From: Enterobacteria phage P922 | Sequence record: OR999189.1 | Direction: 5' to 3' (one strand) | Length of the DNA: 64,000 nt | Shown: positions 1 through 43,467 of the stretch, in pieces | Numbering within the stretch: position 1 is the stretch's first letter | Layout: every line of letters begins with the position of its first letter | Notes under the pieces: generated by a model | What the model saw: the letters and a program-made list of their open reading frames with translations, nothing else | The model's database searches: none | What the model was told of the DNA's origin: nothing | Made by a program: the position numbers and the translations under genes

Positions 1-475
1 TGATGAAAGTCTTTCTGGAAGATTTTCTAGAGGTAAAAAGTCTTTAATACGTCCTGGAATACTCATTAACAGTATTGAATCAATTCATTCATTGACGTGT
101 GATTTTGATGTTGAATTTACTGATTTCATTTCTCCTGAATGGACAGTTTGTTATTTAAATGACGATTATGATTATCTTGGCGTTTATAGTTTAAGTGACG
201 CGTGGTTTAGACGTAATTTACAAAAGTCAAATTTATTTTATATTGATACTACGGTAAAATTTCAGGGAAAGAAATATTTCTTTACTCTTATAGTTGACTC
301 TGAAACAAAATATGAAAATAAGCGTATTCTTAATAAAAGGAATATCTTGACTATTATTGATGATCTTTTTGATAAATTCGTGGAAAATCCTAATTTTGAA
401 AGCGATTTATTACTAGAAAAATTTGTTAAGGAATGTAGAGAATATGTCAAAGCCATCACTATACCTTCCAAGTAA
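1..475 (+). CDS. hypothetical protein, 5' end outside window; first member of a tandem paralog family
   Basis: Frame open from base 2 to stop at 473-475; C-terminal tail EKFVKECREYVK resembles tails of the next three ORFs. Confidence 0.5.
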   Translation, partial: DESLSGRFSRGKKSLIRPGILINSIESIHSLTCDFDVEFTDFISPEWTVCYLNDDYDYLGVYSLSDAWFRRNLQKSNLFYIDTTVKFQGKKYFFTLIVDSETKYENKRILNKRNILTIIDDLFDKFVENPNFESDLLLEKFVKECREYVKAITIPSK

Positions 476-836
476 ACCTGTGAAGTATGAACTAAAGCGC
501 CAGATAATTTCTACCGATGTATTAATGGGTCCTGTGGTAGCTGTATCATTTGTGATTCTGCTAATTGCTGGAATGGTTATAGACGTTATGACTGATATTG
601 AATCCGGTGTAATATTTGGAGCAACGCTAATTCTTCCATTAATAATTCCGCTTTTATTAGTACCTGTAAATTGGGTAGGATACTGGTATCAAGGAAGACA
701 TTATCGTAAACGCGTACGTGAATGGAAAGCTCAGTGTAAAAAGATTAAAAAGGAACACCAGCTTAAACTAGATATGTATGAATTTAACGAAATTATGAAA
801 TTTGTTAAGGAATCACGATGCAAAAGCCAAAACTAA
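444..836 (+). CDS. small membrane protein, paralog family (C-terminal FVKESRC tail)
   Basis: ORF track 423..836; ATG at 444; hydrophobic helices; start uncertain (TTG 423 alternative). Confidence 0.5.
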   Translation: MSKPSLYLPSKPVKYELKRQIISTDVLMGPVVAVSFVILLIAGMVIDVMTDIESGVIFGATLILPLIIPLLLVPVNWVGYWYQGRHYRKRVREWKAQCKKIKKEHQLKLDMYEFNEIMKFVKESRCKSQN

Positions 837-1180
837 ATAAAGTCAAATATTCGTTTCTCGAGGCAATGTTAATTCTTGCTGTATCAGTATTTGCAGCTCT
901 TGCGGGTAGTCTTATTGGATTAATGATTGACTGTTTTATTTTAAACGTCGATGGTTCAGCAATTATAACAGAGGTTTGGAGTGAACTTCGTTTTACTATA
1001 GCAATTTCATTATTTTCATTCTTTGGCACTATATTATATTTTCATTATGATAATTTTAAAATAAATTGGCAAAGAAAAAAGGATTACAAAATACAATTAA
1101 AAGAATATAATAACTACATGTCTTATATTGAAAATGAATCAATGAAAGAGTTTGTGAGTGATTGTAGGAAAATTAAATGA
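818..1180 (+). CDS. small membrane protein, paralog family (C-terminal FVSDCRK tail)
   Basis: ORF track; AAGGA 6 nt upstream of ATG 818; two hydrophobic segments. Confidence 0.6.
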   Translation: MQKPKLNKVKYSFLEAMLILAVSVFAALAGSLIGLMIDCFILNVDGSAIITEVWSELRFTIAISLFSFFGTILYFHYDNFKINWQRKKDYKIQLKEYNNYMSYIENESMKEFVSDCRKIK

Positions 1181-1665
1181 TTTTAAAAACTCGCTGGTAT
1201 GATTTAGATGATGGGGACGATGGCATTTCAGTTGATGGAGTTGACTGGAGTGGCTGTTCCGAAGATATGAAAAATTTGCTGATTAGGGAGTTTAGAATGG
1301 GATATCAACCAGTTAAGCCATCTACTGCAACAAATGATAAATTCGTGTGTATTCATAATGGTCGCGCTAAATTAACGAACGCTGATTGGTTCACAGATAA
1401 AATTATGATTCTGTGGTACATTATTAGTTTTCCTGTGACATCATTTGTATTTTGCTTCTTTGGAGAAAGTCCAGTAGGCAGAACGGGAGATTGGATTATT
1501 TTAACCATACTTGTTAATATTTTTACAGCAGCAATATTATCTGGGATATGGTACACGTTCATTGAAATGCCATGGCGGCTACGCAGACAACAAAAGATTT
1601 TTGATGAAAAGAAATATACTCAAAATTTAAATAACTTTATCACTGAATGCAGGAAATTAAAATGA
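1177..1665 (+). CDS. membrane protein, paralog family (C-terminal FITECRK tail)
   Basis: ORF track; ATGA start/stop overlap with previous ORF; hydrophobic segments. Confidence 0.6.
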   Translation: MILKTRWYDLDDGDDGISVDGVDWSGCSEDMKNLLIREFRMGYQPVKPSTATNDKFVCIHNGRAKLTNADWFTDKIMILWYIISFPVTSFVFCFFGESPVGRTGDWIILTILVNIFTAAILSGIWYTFIEMPWRLRRQQKIFDEKKYTQNLNNFITECRKLK

Positions 1666-2102
1666 AAACATTATCAGCTGGTATTATCTTTATGACAGAA
1701 GATAAAGATTTATTTATGGGTCGGGTTACTGGTTCTCGTAAGCCTGGAATGATGGCACATCGCTGGGATATTCCAAAGGGCCGTGTAGAAAATTCTGATT
1801 TAAGCGCATTAGATGCAGCACGAAGAGAATGTTTAGAAGAGACTGGTTTTAACAATTATAATCCAGATCTTCTAGAAGACCTAGGTGTATTTAAATATTC
1901 TAGTAATAAAGACCTACAGTTATTTTATTATACGATTCCAGTAGAGCATGAGATGTTTAGAAATTGCTATTGCGAGTCTTATTTTGAAAATAAAGATGGC
2001 GTTATGATTCCAGAGATGGATGCTTTTGCTCTTATTCCTCGTACCCAGTGGCAATATGTGATGGGCCCTTCACTTTACCGAATAATGAACAGCCTCTTTT
2101 AA
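1662..2102 (+). CDS. nudE: Nudix hydrolase (T4 NudE / e.1-like)
   Basis: Nudix box RRECLEETGF; AGGAA RBS before ATG 1662 (ATGA overlap with upstream stop); immediately upstream of lysozyme as in T4. Confidence 0.85.
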   Translation: MKTLSAGIIFMTEDKDLFMGRVTGSRKPGMMAHRWDIPKGRVENSDLSALDAARRECLEETGFNNYNPDLLEDLGVFKYSSNKDLQLFYYTIPVEHEMFRNCYCESYFENKDGVMIPEMDAFALIPRTQWQYVMGPSLYRIMNSLF

Positions 2103-2905
<803 letters not shown>

Positions 2906-2963
2906 TGTTTACTTCCTCCAAGGGTTTTGATACTATACATTCATCAACTACTTGGAGGAAATT

Positions 2964-3377
2964 ATGACCCGTATCAATTTAACACTTGTTTCTGAATTGG
3001 CCGACCAACATCTTATGGCTGAGTATCGTGAATTACCACGCGTATTTGGTGCAGTCCGTAAACATGTTCAAAACGGTAAATGTGTAAAGGATTTTAAAAT
3101 CTCTCCAACATTTATATTAGGCACAGGTCACGTAACATTCTTTTACGACAAACTCGAATTTTTACGTTTACGTCAAATCGAGCTAATCGCTGAATGCTTG
3201 AAACGTGGTTTCAAAATCAAGGACACGACTGTCCAGGATATTTCCGACATCCCTGCCGAATTTCGTAATAATTATGTCCCGGACGAAGCGTCCATTGCGA
3301 TAAGTCAAGCACGCTTAGATGAAAAAATTGCTCAACGTCCTACTTGGTACAAATACTATGGTAAATCAATTTACTAA
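2964..3377 (+). CDS. denV: endonuclease V, pyrimidine dimer DNA glycosylase (DenV)
   Basis: [34 protein letters not shown]... matches T4 DenV; GGAGG RBS before ATG 2964. Confidence 0.92.
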
Positions 3378-3389
3378 GGAAAAATTAAA

Positions 3390-3644
3390 ATGTATCAAGA
3401 ATTTATCGCTGAAGCAGATGCCAAAGGCCCCAAATTTAAAGTTAAAGCTTTCATTGGTGATGCCGAAGATTTTGGCTCATTAAAACGTAATGGGTATTCT
3501 TTCTCAGGCGGCAATGGTAAAGAAATAAACACCTATGCAAAACGTAGTGAAATTGCTTATGTTGTAGTAAGCCCTAAAGTAGATGTTGACGATATTGGAT
3601 ACGATTTTAACAACTTCGGAATTATTTCTGGCGGTAAAGCTTAA
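3390..3644 (+). CDS. internal protein-like small protein
   Basis: Starts MYQEFIAEA, a CTS-like motif lacking the KT dipeptide; 84 aa. Confidence 0.55.
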   Translation: MYQEFIAEADAKGPKFKVKAFIGDAEDFGSLKRNGYSFSGGNGKEINTYAKRSEIAYVVVSPKVDVDDIGYDFNNFGIISGGKA

Positions 3645-3705
3645 ACAGTTTACGCTTAAGTATTAATATGGTATAATTACTCTATCAAAACAAACAAGGA
3701 AACAC

Positions 3706-4281
3706 ATGAAAACGTATAAAGAATTTATCGCTGAAGCTTCTGTGGAAAAGGCCAAAGGCATTAATAAAGATGAGTGGACTTACCGAGGAAATGGTTTTGA
3801 CCCTAAAACAGCCCCTATTGAACGATACTTAGCTACAAAAGCTTCCGACTTTAAAGCTTTCGCTTGGGAAGGACTTCGCTGGTGTACTGATCTAAATATT
3901 GAAGTTGATGGGCTTAAATTTGGCCATATTCAAGATGTTGTTGCTAGTAACTTGGACGCAGCTTTTGTTAAAGCTGACGGTGACCTTCGTCGCTGGAATT
4001 TAAAATTATTCTCTAAACAGAAAGGCCCAGTGTTTGTGCCTAAAGCTGGTAAATGGGTTATTGATAATAAATTAGCTAAGGCTGTCAACTTCGCCGGTCT
4101 TGAATTTGCCAAGCACAAATCGGCATGGAAAGGTCTTGATGCAATGGCTTTCCGTAAAGAATTCGCCGAGGTTATGACTAAAGGCGGCTTTAAGGCAGAA
4201 CTAGATACCTCTAAAGGTACGTTTAAAGACGCTAATGTTCAGTATGCTTACGCCGTTGCTAATGCAGCCCGTGGTAATTAA
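3706..4281 (+). CDS. ipIII: internal protein III-like (IPIII)
   Basis: MKTYKEFIAEASVEKAKGINKDEWTYRGNGFDPKTAPIERYLATKASDFKAFAWEGLRW... resembles T4 IPIII; CTS present. Confidence 0.8.
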   Translation: MKTYKEFIAEASVEKAKGINKDEWTYRGNGFDPKTAPIERYLATKASDFKAFAWEGLRWCTDLNIEVDGLKFGHIQDVVASNLDAAFVKADGDLRRWNLKLFSKQKGPVFVPKAGKWVIDNKLAKAVNFAGLEFAKHKSAWKGLDAMAFRKEFAEVMTKGGFKAELDTSKGTFKDANVQYAYAVANAARGN

Positions 4282-4283
4282 TA

Positions 4284-4306
4284 AGGCCGATACTTAGGCC
4301 TATTTA
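4284..4306 (+). terminator. hairpin after IPIII gene (weak terminator candidate)
   Basis: AGGCC-8 nt loop-GGCCT followed by TATTT. Confidence 0.35.
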
Positions 4307-4458
4307 CATTCAAATAACATGGGAACAAGCTGGACCTCATGATTCTATGAGAGATTCCCGCCAACCTGTAATAAGGTCGAGCCCAAGTGCGGTAATGGGT
4401 AAATACAGAAATGGACAATTCATGCGCCATGGAATGGCCCAAATTTAGAGAGAATAAA

Positions 4459-5001
4459 ATGAGAACATTTTTAACTGGTCCTTATCTATCCCTGATGAAT
4501 GCTTTTACACACCATTCTGATGCTAGAGTAGAAGAAATTTGTAATAGTGGATTTTATGTACCTGATTCGTCGCATTTATTTAAAGAATATTGTACACTTC
4601 GTTTAGATGGTGGCAGACAATCTGGTAAATCAACTGCAGTAACTAATTTTGCCGCTAATTGGTTGTATGACGGTGGAACAGTTATTGTTCTTTCTAATAC
4701 TTCAGCTTACGCTAAAATTTCTGCGGGCCACATTAAAAAAGAATTTTCGCGTTATTCTAGCGATGATATTCGATTCCGCTTATTTACTGATTCTGTGCGC
4801 AGTTTTATTGGGAATAAAGGAAGCAAGTTCAGAGGTTTATCGCTTTCGCGGATTTTGTATATAATCGATGAGCCTGTTAAATCTCCTGATATGGATAAAA
4901 TTTACGATATTCATATTGAAACTGTGCACCACTGTTGCAATAGTAAATGCTGCATTGGCGGTATTACTCGTCCGCAGTTTTTCGTAATTGGGATGCAATG
5001 A
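4459..5001 (+). CDS. small P-loop NTPase (Walker A GGRQSGKST, Walker B LYIIDEP)
   Basis: ORF track 4411..5001; start at ATG 4459 chosen for weak GAGAG RBS; ATGs at 4411/4429 also possible. Confidence 0.55.
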   Translation: MRTFLTGPYLSLMNAFTHHSDARVEEICNSGFYVPDSSHLFKEYCTLRLDGGRQSGKSTAVTNFAANWLYDGGTVIVLSNTSAYAKISAGHIKKEFSRYSSDDIRFRLFTDSVRSFIGNKGSKFRGLSLSRILYIIDEPVKSPDMDKIYDIHIETVHHCCNSKCCIGGITRPQFFVIGMQ

Positions 5002-39055: not shown

Positions 39056-41752
39056 ATGAAAGAATTTTATATCTCTATCGAAACAGTCGGAAATAATATT
39101 GTTGAGCGTTATATTGATGAAAACGGAAAGGAACGTACTCGTGAAGTAGAATATCTTCCGACTATGTTTAGGCATTGTAAGGAAGAGTCAAAGTACAAAG
39201 ACATTTACGGTAAAAATTGCGCTCCTCAAAAATTTCCATCAATGAAAGATGCACGAGATTGGATGAAACGAATGGAAGACATCGGTCTCGAAGCTCTTGG
39301 TATGAACGATTTTAAACTCGCTTATATCAGTGATACATATGGTTCAGAAATTGTTTATGACCGAAAATTTGTTCGTGTAGCTAACTGCGACATTGAGGTT
39401 ACTGGTGATAAATTTCCTGACCCAATGAAAGCAGAATATGAAATTGATGCTATCACTCATTATGATTCAATTGACGACCGTTTTTACGTCTTTGATTTGT
39501 TGAATTCAATGTACGGTTCAGTATCAAAATGGGATGCAAAGTTAGCTGCTAAGCTTGACTGTGAAGGTGGTGATGAAGTTCCTCAAGAAATTCTTGACCG
39601 AGTAATTTATATGCCATTCGATAATGAGCGTGATATGCTCATGGAATATATTAATCTCTGGGAACAGAAACGACCTGCTATTTTTACTGGTTGGAATATT
39701 GAGGGATTTGACGTTCCGTATATCATGAATCGTGTTAAAATGGTTCTCGGTGAACGCAGTATGAAACGTTTCTCTCCAATCGGTCGAGTAAAATCTAAAT
39801 TAATTCAAAATATGTACGGTAGCAAAGAAATTTATTCTATTGATGGCGTATCTATTCTTGATTATTTAGATTTGTACAAGAAATTCGCATTTACTAATTT
39901 GCCATCGTTCTCTTTGGAATCAGTTGCTCAACATGAAACCAAAAAAGGTAAATTACCGTACGATGGTCCTATTAATAAACTTCGTGAGACTAATCATCAA
40001 CGATACATTAGTTATAACATTATTGACGTAGAATCAGTTCAAGCAATTGATAAAATTCGTGGGTTTATCGATCTAGTTTTAAGTATGTCTTATTACGCTA
40101 AAATGCCTTTTTCTGGTGTAATGAGTCCTATTAAAACTTGGGATGCTATTATTTTTAACTCACTGAAAGGTGAACATAAGGTTATTCCTCAACAAGGTTC
40201 GCACGTTAAACAGAGTTTTCCAGGTGCATTTGTGTTTGAACCTAAACCGATTGCTCGTCGATACATTATGAGTTTTGACTTGACGTCTCTGTATCCTAGC
40301 ATTATTCGTCAGGTTAACATTAGTCCTGAGACTATTCGTGGGCAGTTTAAAGTTCATCCAATTCATGAATATATCGCAGGAACAGCTCCTAAGCCAAGTG
40401 ATGAATATTCTTGTTCTCCGAATGGATGGATGTATGATAAGCATCAAGAAGGTATCATTCCAAAGGAAATCGCTAAAGTATTTTTCCAACGTAAAGATTG
40501 GAAAAAGAAAATGTTCGCTGAAGAAATGAATGCCGAAGCTATTAAAAAGATTATTATGAAAGGTGCAGGGTCTTGTTCAACTAAACCAGAAGTTGAACGA
40601 TATGTTAAGTTCAATGATGATTTCTTAAATGAACTATCAAATTATACTGAATCTGTTCTTAATAGTCTGATCGAAGAATGCGAAAAAGCTGCTACACTTG
40701 CTAACACAAATCAGCTGAACCGTAAAATTCTTATTAACAGTCTTTATGGTGCTCTTGGTAATATTCATTTCCGTTACTATGATTTGCGAAATGCTACTGC
40801 TATCACAATTTTCGGTCAAGTTGGTATTCAGTGGATTGCTCGTAAAATTAATGAGTATCTAAATAAAGTGTGTGGAACTGATGGTGAAGATTTCATCGCC
40901 GCGGGTGATACTGATTCGGTATATGTTTGTGTAGATAAAGTTATTGAAAAAGTAGGTCTTGACCGCTTTAAAGAACAAAATGATTTAGTTGAATTCATGA
41001 ATCAGTTTGGTAAGAAAAAGATGGAACCTATGATTGATGTTGCATATCGTGAGTTATGTGATTATATGAATAACCGCGAGCATCTGATGCATATGGACCG
41101 TGAAGCTATTTCTTGCCCTCCGCTTGGTTCAAAGGGCGTTGGTGGATTTTGGAAAGCGAAAAAACGTTATGCTCTGAACGTTTATGATATGGAAGATAAG
41201 CGATTTGCTGAACCACATCTAAAAATCATGGGTATGGAAACTCAGCAGAGTTCAACACCAAAAGCAGTACAAGAAGCTCTCGAAGAAAGTATTCGTCGTA
41301 TTCTTCAGGAAGGCGAAGAGTCTGTCCAAGAATACTATAAGAACTTTGAGAAAGAATACCGTCAACTTGACTATAAAGTTATTGCTGAAGTAAAAACCGC
41401 GAACGATATAGCGAAATATGATGATAAAGGTTGGCCAGGGTTTAAATGCCCGTTCCATATTCGTGGTGTACTAACTTATCGTCGAGCTGTTAGTGGTTTA
41501 GGTGTAGCTCCAATTTTGGATGGAAATAAGGTAATGGTTCTTCCATTACGTGAGGGAAATCCATTTGGTGACAAGTGTATTGCTTGGCCGTCGGGCACAG
41601 AACTTCCAAAAGAAATTCGTTCTGATGTACTGTCTTGGATTGACTACTCAACTTTGTTCCAAAAATCGTTTGTTAAACCGCTTGCGGGCATGTGTGAATC
41701 GGCAGGTATGGACTATGAGGAAAAAGCTTCGTTAGACTTCCTGTTTGGCTGA
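39056..41752 (+). CDS. 43: DNA polymerase gp43 (family B)
   Basis: 898 aa; exonuclease and polymerase motifs DxxSLYPS, KILINSLYGALG, GDTDS. Confidence 0.97.
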   Translation: MKEFYISIETVGNNIVERYIDENGKERTREVEYLPTMFRHCKEESKYKDIYGKNCAPQKFPSMKDARDWMKRMEDIGLEALGMNDFKLAYISDTYGSEIVYDRKFVRVANCDIEVTGDKFPDPMKAEYEIDAITHYDSIDDRFYVFDLLNSMYGSVSKWDAKLAAKLDCEGGDEVPQEILDRVIYMPFDNERDMLMEYINLWEQKRPAIFTGWNIEGFDVPYIMNRVKMVLGERSMKRFSPIGRVKSKLIQNMYGSKEIYSIDGVSILDYLDLYKKFAFTNLPSFSLESVAQHETKKGKLPYDGPINKLRETNHQRYISYNIIDVESVQAIDKIRGFIDLVLSMSYYAKMPFSGVMSPIKTWDAIIFNSLKGEHKVIPQQGSHVKQSFPGAFVFEPKPIARRYIMSFDLTSLYPSIIRQVNISPETIRGQFKVHPIHEYIAGTAPKPSDEYSCSPNGWMYDKHQEGIIPKEIAKVFFQRKDWKKKMFAEEMNAEAIKKIIMKGAGSCSTKPEVERYVKFNDDFLNELSNYTESVLNSLIEECEKAATLANTNQLNRKILINSLYGALGNIHFRYYDLRNATAITIFGQVGIQWIARKINEYLNKVCGTDGEDFIAAGDTDSVYVCVDKVIEKVGLDRFKEQNDLVEFMNQFGKKKMEPMIDVAYRELCDYMNNREHLMHMDREAISCPPLGSKGVGGFWKAKKRYALNVYDMEDKRFAEPHLKIMGMETQQSSTPKAVQEALEESIRRILQEGEESVQEYYKNFEKEYRQLDYKVIAEVKTANDIAKYDDKGWPGFKCPFHIRGVLTYRRAVSGLGVAPILDGNKVMVLPLREGNPFGDKCIAWPSGTELPKEIRSDVLSWIDYSTLFQKSFVKPLAGMCESAGMDYEEKASLDFLFG

Positions 41753-42726: not shown

Positions 42727-43467
42727 ATGATTAACGATTATATGACAGTTGAAGAAATCCGTCTTGATTTGGGTCTTGCATTAAAGGAAAAAGATTTCGT
42801 AATTGATAAAACCGGTGTTAAAACTATTGAAATTATTGGTGCATCATTTGTAGCAGATGAACCTTTTATTTTTGGCGCTCTTAATGATGAATACATTCAG
42901 CGTGAACTTGAATGGTATAAGTCTCAAAGTTTGTTTGTTAAAGATATTCCAGGTGAAACACCAAAGATTTGGCAGCAGGTAGCATCTTCTAAAGGCGAAA
43001 TTAACTCGAATTATGGTTGGGCCATCTGGTCAGAAGATAACTATGCCCAATATGATATGTGTTTAGCTGAACTTGGTCAAAATCCTGATTCTCGACGTGG
43101 TATCATGATTTATACTCGTCCATCCATGCAGTTTGACTACAATAAAGATGGCATGTCAGATTTCATGTGTACGAATACAGTACAGTATCTGATTCGTGAT
43201 AAGAAAGTCAATGCAGTAGTAAGCATGCGTTCAAATGACGTGGTCTTCGGATTCCGTAATGATTATGCATGGCAAAAATACGTACTAGATAAATTAGTAT
43301 CTGATTTGAATGCAGGTGATTCAATTCGTCAGTATAAAGCAGGTTCCATTATATGGAATGTCGGAAGCCTTCATGTGTATTCCCGTCATTTTTATTTGGT
43401 TGACCATTGGTGGAAAACTGGCGAAACTCATATTGCGAAAAAAGATTATAACGGTGAGTGGAAATGA
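42727..43467 (+). CDS. 42: dCMP hydroxymethylase gp42
   Basis: 246 aa, thymidylate-synthase-like; between imm and the glucosyltransferase. Confidence 0.93.
   Translation: MINDYMTVEEIRLDLGLALKEKDFVIDKTGVKTIEIIGASFVADEPFIFGALNDEYIQRELEWYKSQSLFVKDIPGETPKIWQQVASSKGEINSNYGWAIWSEDNYAQYDMCLAELGQNPDSRRGIMIYTRPSMQFDYNKDGMSDFMCTNTVQYLIRDKKVNAVVSMRSNDVVFGFRNDYAWQKYVLDKLVSDLNAGDSIRQYKAGSIIWNVGSLHVYSRHFYLVDHWWKTGETHIAKKDYNGEWK

Follow-up and report, generated by a model that had tools for sequence, protein, structure and literature searches.

A conserved C-terminal tail peptide in the e.5, e.4, e.3 and e.2 proteins of T4-like phages

The 64,000-nucleotide (nt) stretch of Enterobacteria phage P922 analyzed here (OR999189.1; hereafter the window) opens with four consecutive open reading frames (ORFs; positions 1–1665) that read into the Nudix hydrolase gene nudE and that comparison with annotated T4 and with Escherichia phage vB_EcoM_SP1 identified as orthologues of T4 e.5, e.4, e.3 and e.2. 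Our main finding concerns the short, related tails in which their products end, which are conserved as peptide rather than as DNA, recur on otherwise unrelated proteins in other phage genera, and may serve for docking at the cytoplasmic face of the inner membrane. The genes e.2–e.5 are already catalogued as T4 ORFs, and the members described here belong to known, uncharacterized families; what is new, as far as we could check, is a peptide-level tail that links them to one another and to unrelated proteins elsewhere.

The tail motif

The initial annotation had described a tandem family of small membrane proteins with a conserved Cys-Arg tail, on the basis of four C-terminal sequences that prove to be exact: e.5 ends in EKFVKECREYVKAITIPSK, e.4 in MKFVKESRCKSQN, e.3 in KEFVSDCRKIK and e.2 in NNFITECRKLK. 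The four ORFs indeed lie in a row upstream of nudE, the first of them, e.5, being cut by the window edge. The consensus of the tail reads hydrophobic-x-x-F-[I/V]-x-[E/D]-C-[R/K] and is placed at most 11 residues (1–11) from the C-terminus. In the ungapped register, F occupies position 0, V/I +1, E/D +3, C +4 and R +5. As a Cys-Arg tail in the strict sense, the description fits e.5, e.3 and e.2 but not e.4, which carries Ser at +4 (Ile in Mosigvirus) and Arg at +5, with its Cys two positions late, at +6.

A profile hidden Markov model (HMM) or position-specific scoring matrix (PSSM) built on an 11-residue motif was judged too weak, and pattern counts and tail-pair ranks were used instead. The pattern F[VI]x[DE]CR occurs three times in the six frames of the window, against 0.095 occurrences expected from composition, and three times in a complete 168,714-bp Tequatrovirus genome, against 0.24 expected; every match is the tail of e.5, e.3 or e.2, 3–11 residues ahead of the stop codon. 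When every gene-like ORF in the window was compared with every other over its C-terminal 20 residues, the e.3 and e.2 tails formed the top-scoring pair among different ORFs, with none of the 7,620 background pairs scoring as high, and the scores of e.5/e.2, e.5/e.3 and e.5/e.4 were reached by 3, 8 and 16 background pairs, respectively. By itself, the e.4 tail was not significantly similar to that of e.3 or e.2 in this ranking. Overall, the similarity noticed at the outset greatly exceeds chance. Two further candidates in the window, an ECRK at 43356 and a PSSM match at 40655, were rejected as members, as they lie in other frames or inside long unrelated genes.

Constraint on the peptide and on the DNA

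The tails coincide with signals for the translation of the next gene, as the following features of the locus illustrate.

2–475, + strand: e.5 orthologue (T4 Y06P, Pfam PF26876), soluble; C-terminal 157 codons and stop, the N-terminal ~45 codons lying outside the window
422–439, + strand: e.5 tail F-V-K-E-C-R, followed by EYVKAITIPSK and the stop; the last 32 nt of e.5 (444–475) overlap the e.4 start
444–836, + strand: e.4 orthologue (T4 Y06O, Pfam PF26873), 130 amino acids (aa); transmembrane (TM) helices at ~528–590 and ~606–683, predicted N-in/C-in, with a basic juxtamembrane helix
801–821, + strand: e.4 tail F-V-K-E-S-R-C; AAGGA at 807–811 is the Shine–Dalgarno sequence of e.3, and cgATGc (818–820) holds the e.3 start codon
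818–1180, + strand: e.3 orthologue (T4 Y06N), 120 aa; TM helices at ~857–943 and ~986–1045, predicted N-in/C-in
1151–1168, + strand: e.3 tail F-V-S-D-C-R, followed by KIK and the stop; AGGAA at 1166–1170 is the Shine–Dalgarno sequence of e.2, with an ATGA overlap at 1177–1180
1177–1665, + strand: e.2 orthologue (T4 Y06M, Pfam PF26896), intact 162-aa form; conserved cytoplasmic N-domain at 1177–1398
1399–1464, 1483–1563 and 1564–1662, + strand: TM1, TM2, and charged helix plus tail of e.2
1636–1653, + strand: e.2 tail F-I-T-E-C-R, followed by KLK and the stop; AGGAA at 1651–1655 is the Shine–Dalgarno sequence of nudE, with an ATGA overlap at 1662–1665
1662–2102, + strand: nudE, Nudix hydrolase (Pfam NUDIX, E = 1.3e-13, and T4 annotation); context, outside the family

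Because all the tails overlap the translation-initiation region of the next gene, codons were compared across diverged orthologues. Among all members, Arg is encoded by AGG, AGA, CGT, CGC and CGA, Phe by TTT or TTC, Ile by ATT or ATC, and Cys by TGT or TGC. The downstream Shine–Dalgarno sequence lies in the R-K codons (AGGAAA) in T4-type e.3 and e.2, in the K-E codons (AAGGAA) in Mosigvirus e.3, in the E-E (GAGGAA) or K-G (AAAGGA) codons in distant e.2, and 3′ of the motif in a soluble protein of Dhakavirus. The Cys codon of e.4 (TGC of cgATGc) is fixed because the e.3 start codon overlaps it, and the Mosigvirus e.4 tail reads F-V-K-E-I-R-C with agATGc.

Relatives of e.2 at 23–44% identity come from Dhakavirus, Gaprivervirus, Mosigvirus-like genomes and metagenomic T4-like contigs. 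An alignment of 13–14 diverged e.2 sequences retains 10–11 invariant columns (the family invariants being I2, W7, D11, G16, W24, C27, F154, I155, C158 and R159), four of which belong to the tail, and F-I-x-x-C-R is invariant even among relatives of 23–34% identity. The tail is likewise near-invariant among the cluster representatives of each family, with per-family entropy lowest in the tail and the juxtamembrane basic segment and highest in the TM hairpin and its loop. On this codon and column evidence, F, I/V, C and R are held as amino acids, as expected of selection on the peptide and not on the DNA; positions +2/+3 and the e.4 Cys are, by the same evidence, partly explained by overlapping translation signals. 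The tail thus stands as a conserved C-terminal element, predicted to be cytoplasmic, with codon turnover and invariant columns pointing to peptide-level selection. As a shared peptide, the original similarity holds for F, I/V, C and R, but a part of it (the e.4 Cys and the Shine–Dalgarno positions +2/+3) is imposed by the gene overlaps.

Carriers in other genera

Orthologues in Mosigvirus are 48% identical for e.5 and 52% for e.4 and, for e.3, diverged though plainly orthologous (pairwise z = 18), and carry the tails EQFIMECREY (with further residues) in e.5, EFVKEIRCK (likewise) in e.4 and ENFIKECRK, at the very end, in e.3. On a Mosigvirus-like contig, the order e.6, e.5, e.4, e.3 continues with five unrelated genes, a gene for a 101-aa two-TM protein ending in LENFIKECRGK, a 228-aa gene, e.2 (ending in FITECRNLR), a 78-aa gene and nudE. 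In Dhakavirus, the position after e.6 is taken by a 180-aa soluble protein whose BLASTP alignment to e.5 consists of 15 tail residues only (LNRFIAECREYAKEV); the end of its gene overlaps the start of a 117-aa two-TM gene with the tail LETFIKECKS, and in one Dhakavirus genome e.2 lies 4.5 kb from this 117-aa gene. A more distant contig encodes, besides its own e.2, a 99-aa soluble protein ending in LNHFIKECRRNQKCLVN. Altogether, the soluble carriers of the tail represent three or more unrelated domains and the two-TM carriers five or more kinds of protein; they come from Tequatrovirus, Mosigvirus, Dhakavirus and metagenomic relatives, and the tail always lies 1–11 residues from the stop. In three genera, the gene for a soluble carrier runs into the start of the gene for a two-TM carrier.

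Another tail family, unrelated to the first, came to light in Mosigvirus S143_2 (3884–4678), where a row of three small ORFs for soluble proteins has the C-termini GAWVSSSALC, GGWIASSHTC and QGWVSSSYSC; on a distant contig (1317–1508), a 63-aa ORF related to them ends in KWQSSSYDC.

Topology and structure

Hydropathy confirms two hydrophobic helices in at least three of the ORFs, namely e.4, e.3 and e.2. Their N-termini and long C-terminal segments are rich in Lys and Arg and the loops between their helices are short, from which an N-in/C-in topology is predicted. The term membrane proteins suits these three but not e.5, which is considered soluble because it has no hydrophobic segment at full length (maximum KD19 0.87).

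AlphaFold2 modeled e.2 with a mean predicted local distance difference test (pLDDT) score of 51 from a shallow alignment and 74.6 once distant homologues were included. The model comprises a small N-domain, TM1 (75–96), and a single continuous helix (103–160) formed by TM2 and the tail, with pLDDT ~81–85 over residues 131–160. On such a helix, the hydrophobic residue at −3, F(0), I/V(+1) and C(+4) fall within ~100 degrees and adjoin R(+5); the hydrophobic moment of the tails is 0.33–0.54. A viral protein matched by the e.2 model in Foldseek, A0A220NRA7 (124 aa; E = 6e-4, 22% identity), has the length of the 124-aa variant of e.3 and may be that protein.

Relationships among the four proteins

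Single-sequence Smith–Waterman z-scores are inflated by TM composition and were replaced by profile–profile comparison (hhalign), using alignments enriched with Mosigvirus and distant sequences, along with reversed, block-shuffled and window-shuffled controls. The profiles of e.4 and e.3 align over 108 columns (P = 3.5e-5) that span the N-terminus MxKPxL..VKY, both helices, the linker and the tail, and e.3 aligns with the C-terminal half of e.2 over linker and tail (P = 2.6e-6), a pair also supported by the window-shuffled pairwise tests (z 4.6–5.7). Between e.5 and e.2, the alignment covers 12 columns of tail only (P = 2.5e-4). That of e.4 with the C-terminal half of e.2 (P = 2.5e-3) is no better than its reversed-sequence control and finds no support in the window-shuffled tests. 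Reversed-profile controls otherwise gave P values of 0.01–0.3, except for e.4 against reversed e.2 at 1.3e-4; because one control reached this level, a P near 1e-4 between membrane proteins is unsafe. Our reading of the profiles is that e.4 and e.3 are diverged paralogues; e.3 and the C-terminal half of e.2 are probably related, and e.5, as aligned, has only the tail in common with the other three. The proposed tandem family is thus supported in part, for e.4 with e.3 over the full length and for e.3 with half of e.2; e.5 shares the tail only, and the e.4–e.2 pair stays at control level.

Nor does the locus behave as a simple tandem array, as e.2 lies 3–4.5 kb from the other tail genes in Mosigvirus-like and Dhakavirus genomes; because e.2 is distant elsewhere, the four-in-a-row layout, with e.3 next to e.2, is a derived state of Tequatrovirus. 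The e.3/e.2 (1124–1215) and e.2/nudE (1609–1700) junctions are nearly identical in DNA (TGTAGGAAAATTAAATGA vs. TGCAGGAAATTAAAATGA), with two residues added after CRK relative to other genera. Both junctions are specific to Tequatrovirus, and the genes that separate these ORFs in other genera are missing there, which suggests that the Tequatrovirus deletions at e.3/e.2 and e.2/nudE were resolved at the tail-coding repeats.

Several rearranged forms of these genes occur naturally. In five genome-length contigs, including vB_EcoM-UFV05 (OP555981; 1501–1821), a 106-aa hybrid joins the N-terminus of e.4 to e.2 in register within TM1 (...GPV/TSFVF...), with e.3 deleted; the locus then reads e.6, e.5, hybrid, nudE, and the architecture and the tail are kept. 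In e.4 itself, the TM hairpin and loop come in two strongly differing alleles (VEIIPVIMFTISTIIGFIILEHNKNASREIIFLLMFLIPLITPF vs. GPVVAVSFVILLIAGMVIDVMTDIESGVIFGATLILPLIIPL) set between nearly identical N- and C-terminal flanks, which makes it a mosaic. Two chimeras from metagenomes, one with the e.4 N-terminus fused to an HTH_11-like sequence (P0194, 97 aa) and one with a foreign N-terminus fused to the last 21 residues of e.2, tail included (P0205, 83 aa), could be the two junctions of an insertion replacing e.4–e.2, or assembly artefacts.

Genomic context and T4 biology

The window derives from a T4-like phage (Tequatrovirus): over its first 2.7 kb it shares 97% identity with vB_EcoM_SP1, and of the 682 phage records that match this segment almost all are Tequatrovirus. 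Relative to the T4 orthologues, gene order and overlaps are alike and protein identity is 80–98%. Complete e.5 has ~202 aa, of which the window holds 157; it is 92–98% identical to e.5 of T4-like phages, the part in the window differs from T4 e.5 at few positions, and it matches PHROG 2607 (E = 1.7e-108, query completed with the T4 N-terminus), PF26876 being present on the orthologue. e.4 matches PHROG 2604 (E = 2.4e-70), with PF26873 on 99 homologues, and e.3 matches PHROG 2330 (E = 1.2e-55), with 45 homologues and 80.8% identity to T4 e.3. e.2 matches PHROG 2203 over residues 1–160 (E = 1.1e-78), with PF26896 on homologues at 79–93% identity; a profile search also recovered its distant members, and it has the layout of its family, in which an N-domain W..LDDGxEG..VDWxxC is followed by two TM helices and the F-I-x-x-C-R tail. 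The four genes have similar record counts in the phage collection (e.5 643, e.4 670, e.3 614, e.2 533) and form four separate families in the databases searched.

Consecutive genes from e.5 through nudE overlap by 32, 19, 4 and 4 nt, and nudE is followed by lysozyme e (2139–2627) and then denV. Over 1–3400, promoter- and terminator-like consensus matches were at about the level of shuffled sequence, and the same scan placed no terminator-like site within the e.5–e.2 cluster on the coding strand. The four genes presumably form a single run of overlapping, translationally coupled genes reading into nudE and lysozyme e. In the window and in related genomes, nudE follows e.2 either immediately or after a single small ORF; a locus search seeded with nudE gave four near-identical loci only. 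The start of nudE is ambiguous (1647–1664): T4 annotates the upstream ATG at 1647 (MQEIKMK...), which falls inside the codons for E-C in the e.2 tail and lacks a Shine–Dalgarno sequence, and SP1 the second ATG at 1662, which is preceded by AGGAA at a distance of 6 nt and overlaps the e.2 stop as ATGA. Further on, 2609–4281 reads e, a 98-aa ORF, denV, an 84-aa ORF and a 191-aa ORF, as compared to e, ipIII, ipII and denV in T4, and the internal-protein genes appear to have been rearranged or replaced.

Several GenBank records name e.3 or e.4 “sulfurtransferase,” “DNA primase,” or “phosphoserine phosphatase,” labels for which no supporting Pfam or NCBIfam model was found. A rhodanese-type sulfurtransferase in particular was dismissed, as Pfam and NCBIfam gave no match, the C-terminal segment with the Cys is predicted to be helical, and e.3 and e.4 are two-TM hairpins; so was a PspA/IM30-like identity for e.6, with the hairpins as PspB/C-like anchors, which had no Pfam or PDB sequence support.

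In T4, according to a multi-omics study, RNA from e.2–e.5 is early throughout and all four proteins are detected, accumulating at different times, with e.4 and e.5 early, e.2 in the middle and e.3 late (PMC9697503). All four genes are scored “Not Fit” in a CRISPRi-ART survey (PMC11879866) and “Non-essential” in a HIDEN-SEQ transposon mapping (10.1101/2025.11.20.689424). In the library searched, e.2–e.5 and their UniProt names appeared in supplementary tables only, the main texts giving no function or shared motif. The T4 reference e.2 (NC_000866 67475–67960) is cut to 102 aa by two compensating frameshifts ~75 nt apart, as compared to the intact 162 aa here: the segment next to TM2 is in another frame, and linker and tail (NNFITECRKLK) are back in frame, beyond stop codons. 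The 102-aa form also occurs in other phages (P0094, P0095).

Possible functions of the tail

From its conservation, portability, position and gene coupling, the tail could be a portable cytoplasmic docking or address helix, a reading that we regard as plausible though a little short of probable. The locus encodes the soluble e.5 and, in e.4, e.3 and e.2, three small hairpins of the inner membrane, predicted N-in/C-in, and all four proteins end in a short, predicted amphipathic helix with L/F/I/C on one face beside a conserved basic residue. In the mechanism that we propose, this helix would let different phage accessory proteins converge on a single binding site where the inner membrane faces the cytoplasm. 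In its simplest form, the tails may bind each other, so that the hairpins would tether to the membrane a soluble partner whose gene directly precedes theirs; as another possibility, all tails may bind one shared host or phage partner, as the initial annotation had suggested. As to biological role, an accessory one is probable, be it in host takeover, in exclusion or in counter-defence at the membrane. It is tempting, if decidedly unlikely, to extend this to a phage address tag (hydrophobic-x-x-F-[I/V]-x-x-C-[R/K]) by which T-even-type phages would direct eight or more unrelated accessory proteins, some soluble and some anchored in the membrane, to one shared site, either a host machine or an inner-membrane complex built by the phage, with the near-invariant Cys taking part in the link, for example as a metal bridge between tails, a disulfide or a covalent modification.

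A precedent of sorts is offered by the gp45 sliding clamp, which several T4 proteins bind through C-terminal tails. The clamp-binding tails and those described here are alike in consisting of a short C-terminal peptide with few hydrophobic anchors, on otherwise unrelated carriers and directed to one site (as proposed here); they differ in that there is no sequence resemblance and the present tails sit on membrane hairpins and small accessory proteins.

A number of observations weigh against a common docking helix. The motif is short, and some of its positions are confounded by overlapping translation signals. An HMM or PSSM built from e.2 tails alone is weak, ranking e.5 second or third (E = 0.03) and missing e.3 because V replaces I there. 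No covariation is visible between the tails of neighboring genes. As e.4 lacks the aligned Cys, this residue is not essential for any function common to all four. The frameshifts of T4 e.2 and the natural e.4::e.2 hybrid without e.3 indicate that the four members are not strictly interdependent. Finally, similarity searches gave no functional lead: scanning all four proteins against Pfam, NCBIfam and PADLOC gave sub-threshold noise only (no match to a PADLOC model; e.4 against the Bfi1 immunity family of NCBIfam 16 bits, with a cut-off of 100), neither e.5 nor the e.2 profile retrieved any relevant sequence from the PDB, and fold searches with the e.2 model met only relatives or generic helical hairpins.

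Considering how closely the genes overlap, the tail might instead be a relic of duplication or recombination, frozen by dual coding with the ribosome-binding site or start of the next gene, the peptide itself having no shared function. Every tail does overlap or abut the next Shine–Dalgarno sequence or start codon, the e.3 ATG dictates the e.4 Cys, and +2/+3 (K-E, E-E, K-G) is often the Shine–Dalgarno sequence itself; moreover, e.5 and e.4 tails share 16 identical nt, the e.5/e.4 and e.4/e.3 junctions align in DNA, as do e.3/e.2 and e.2/nudE, and the e.5 tail keeps 24 identical nt between T4-type phages and Mosigvirus despite 48% protein identity. Short junction sequences recur in the hyperplastic regions of T4-type genomes, which undergo modular shuffling, and this locus likewise varies by insertion, deletion and hybrids; the recurring element here, however, lies in coding sequence, and what persists is the peptide, under synonymous turnover, rather than a signal in the DNA. 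What makes a relic unlikely is that Arg is drawn from five codons of both codon families, with F, I and C varying synonymously, that the Shine–Dalgarno sequence shifts between codons and lies 3′ of the motif in Dhakavirus, and that F-I-x-x-C-R stays invariant in e.2 relatives (23–34% identity) in which the last 1–4 nt alone overlap the next gene. We consider it improbable, too, that the tail acts at the C-terminus as a signal for turnover or quality control, to be recognized by ClpXP or FtsH, as AAA+ proteases of the host, or by a phage factor, so that the lifetime of these early proteins would be limited. Basic MuA-like C-termini constitute one class of ClpX signals, and the motif, always 1–11 residues from the C-terminus and with the basic endings CRK, CRKLK and CRKIK, invites the comparison, as do genes that are early and proteins that accumulate at different times although all their RNAs are early. 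In the soluble members, however, 8–11 unrelated residues follow the motif, which is not then at the very end, and the conserved F, I and C are internal and on one helical face, more as in a binding surface than in a terminal degron.

The Cys-Arg pair might also do chemistry, as a metal or Fe-S site bridging several tails, a redox or disulfide switch, a target of covalent modification (ADP-ribosylation) or a sulfur-transfer center. These proteins contain few Cys residues, the e.2 family shows no variation at the Cys and Arg or at a second Cys (C27) in the N-domain, and there are the database “sulfurtransferase” labels; e.2 is further syntenic with the Nudix hydrolase gene nudE across genera, weak evidence because synteny is generally conserved in T4-like genomes. 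We find such chemistry highly improbable given the Ser or Ile at the aligned position in e.4, the Lys in place of Arg in one Dhakavirus member, the lack of a rhodanese or other catalytic domain in Pfam or NCBIfam and the location of the Cys in a predicted helix. Similarly, the hairpins could be effectors of the holin/antiholin or superinfection-exclusion type beside the endolysin gene, with the tail as a regulatory cytoplasmic end. In size, two TM helices, predicted N-in/C-in topology and a highly charged cytoplasmic C-terminus, e.2–e.4 resemble class II holins and T4 Imm, their genes lie just upstream of lysozyme e, and the variability of the TM hairpin and periplasmic loop, with two hairpin alleles in e.4, would fit an envelope arms race. 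However, Pfam, PHROGs, NCBIfam and PADLOC show no similarity to holin, Imm or defence families, T4 lysis depends on gene t, and the T4 genes are early, not late, and dispensable; the conserved Cys-Arg tail is not a holin feature, and the soluble proteins that bear it would be left unexplained, so that this possibility appears very unlikely.

Conclusion

T4 is the best-studied virulent phage, and its e.2–e.5 had no function, phenotype or mutual link. These genes can be deleted jointly, and knock-downs of one at a time may for that reason show nothing. Point mutations of F, I/V, C and R would give a loss-of-function allele for the whole set, and the tail could be used as bait. If the wider address tag were borne out, bacterial viruses would have a kind of targeting system so far undescribed for them; if the common docking tag is, a block of phage genes would be joined into one system.

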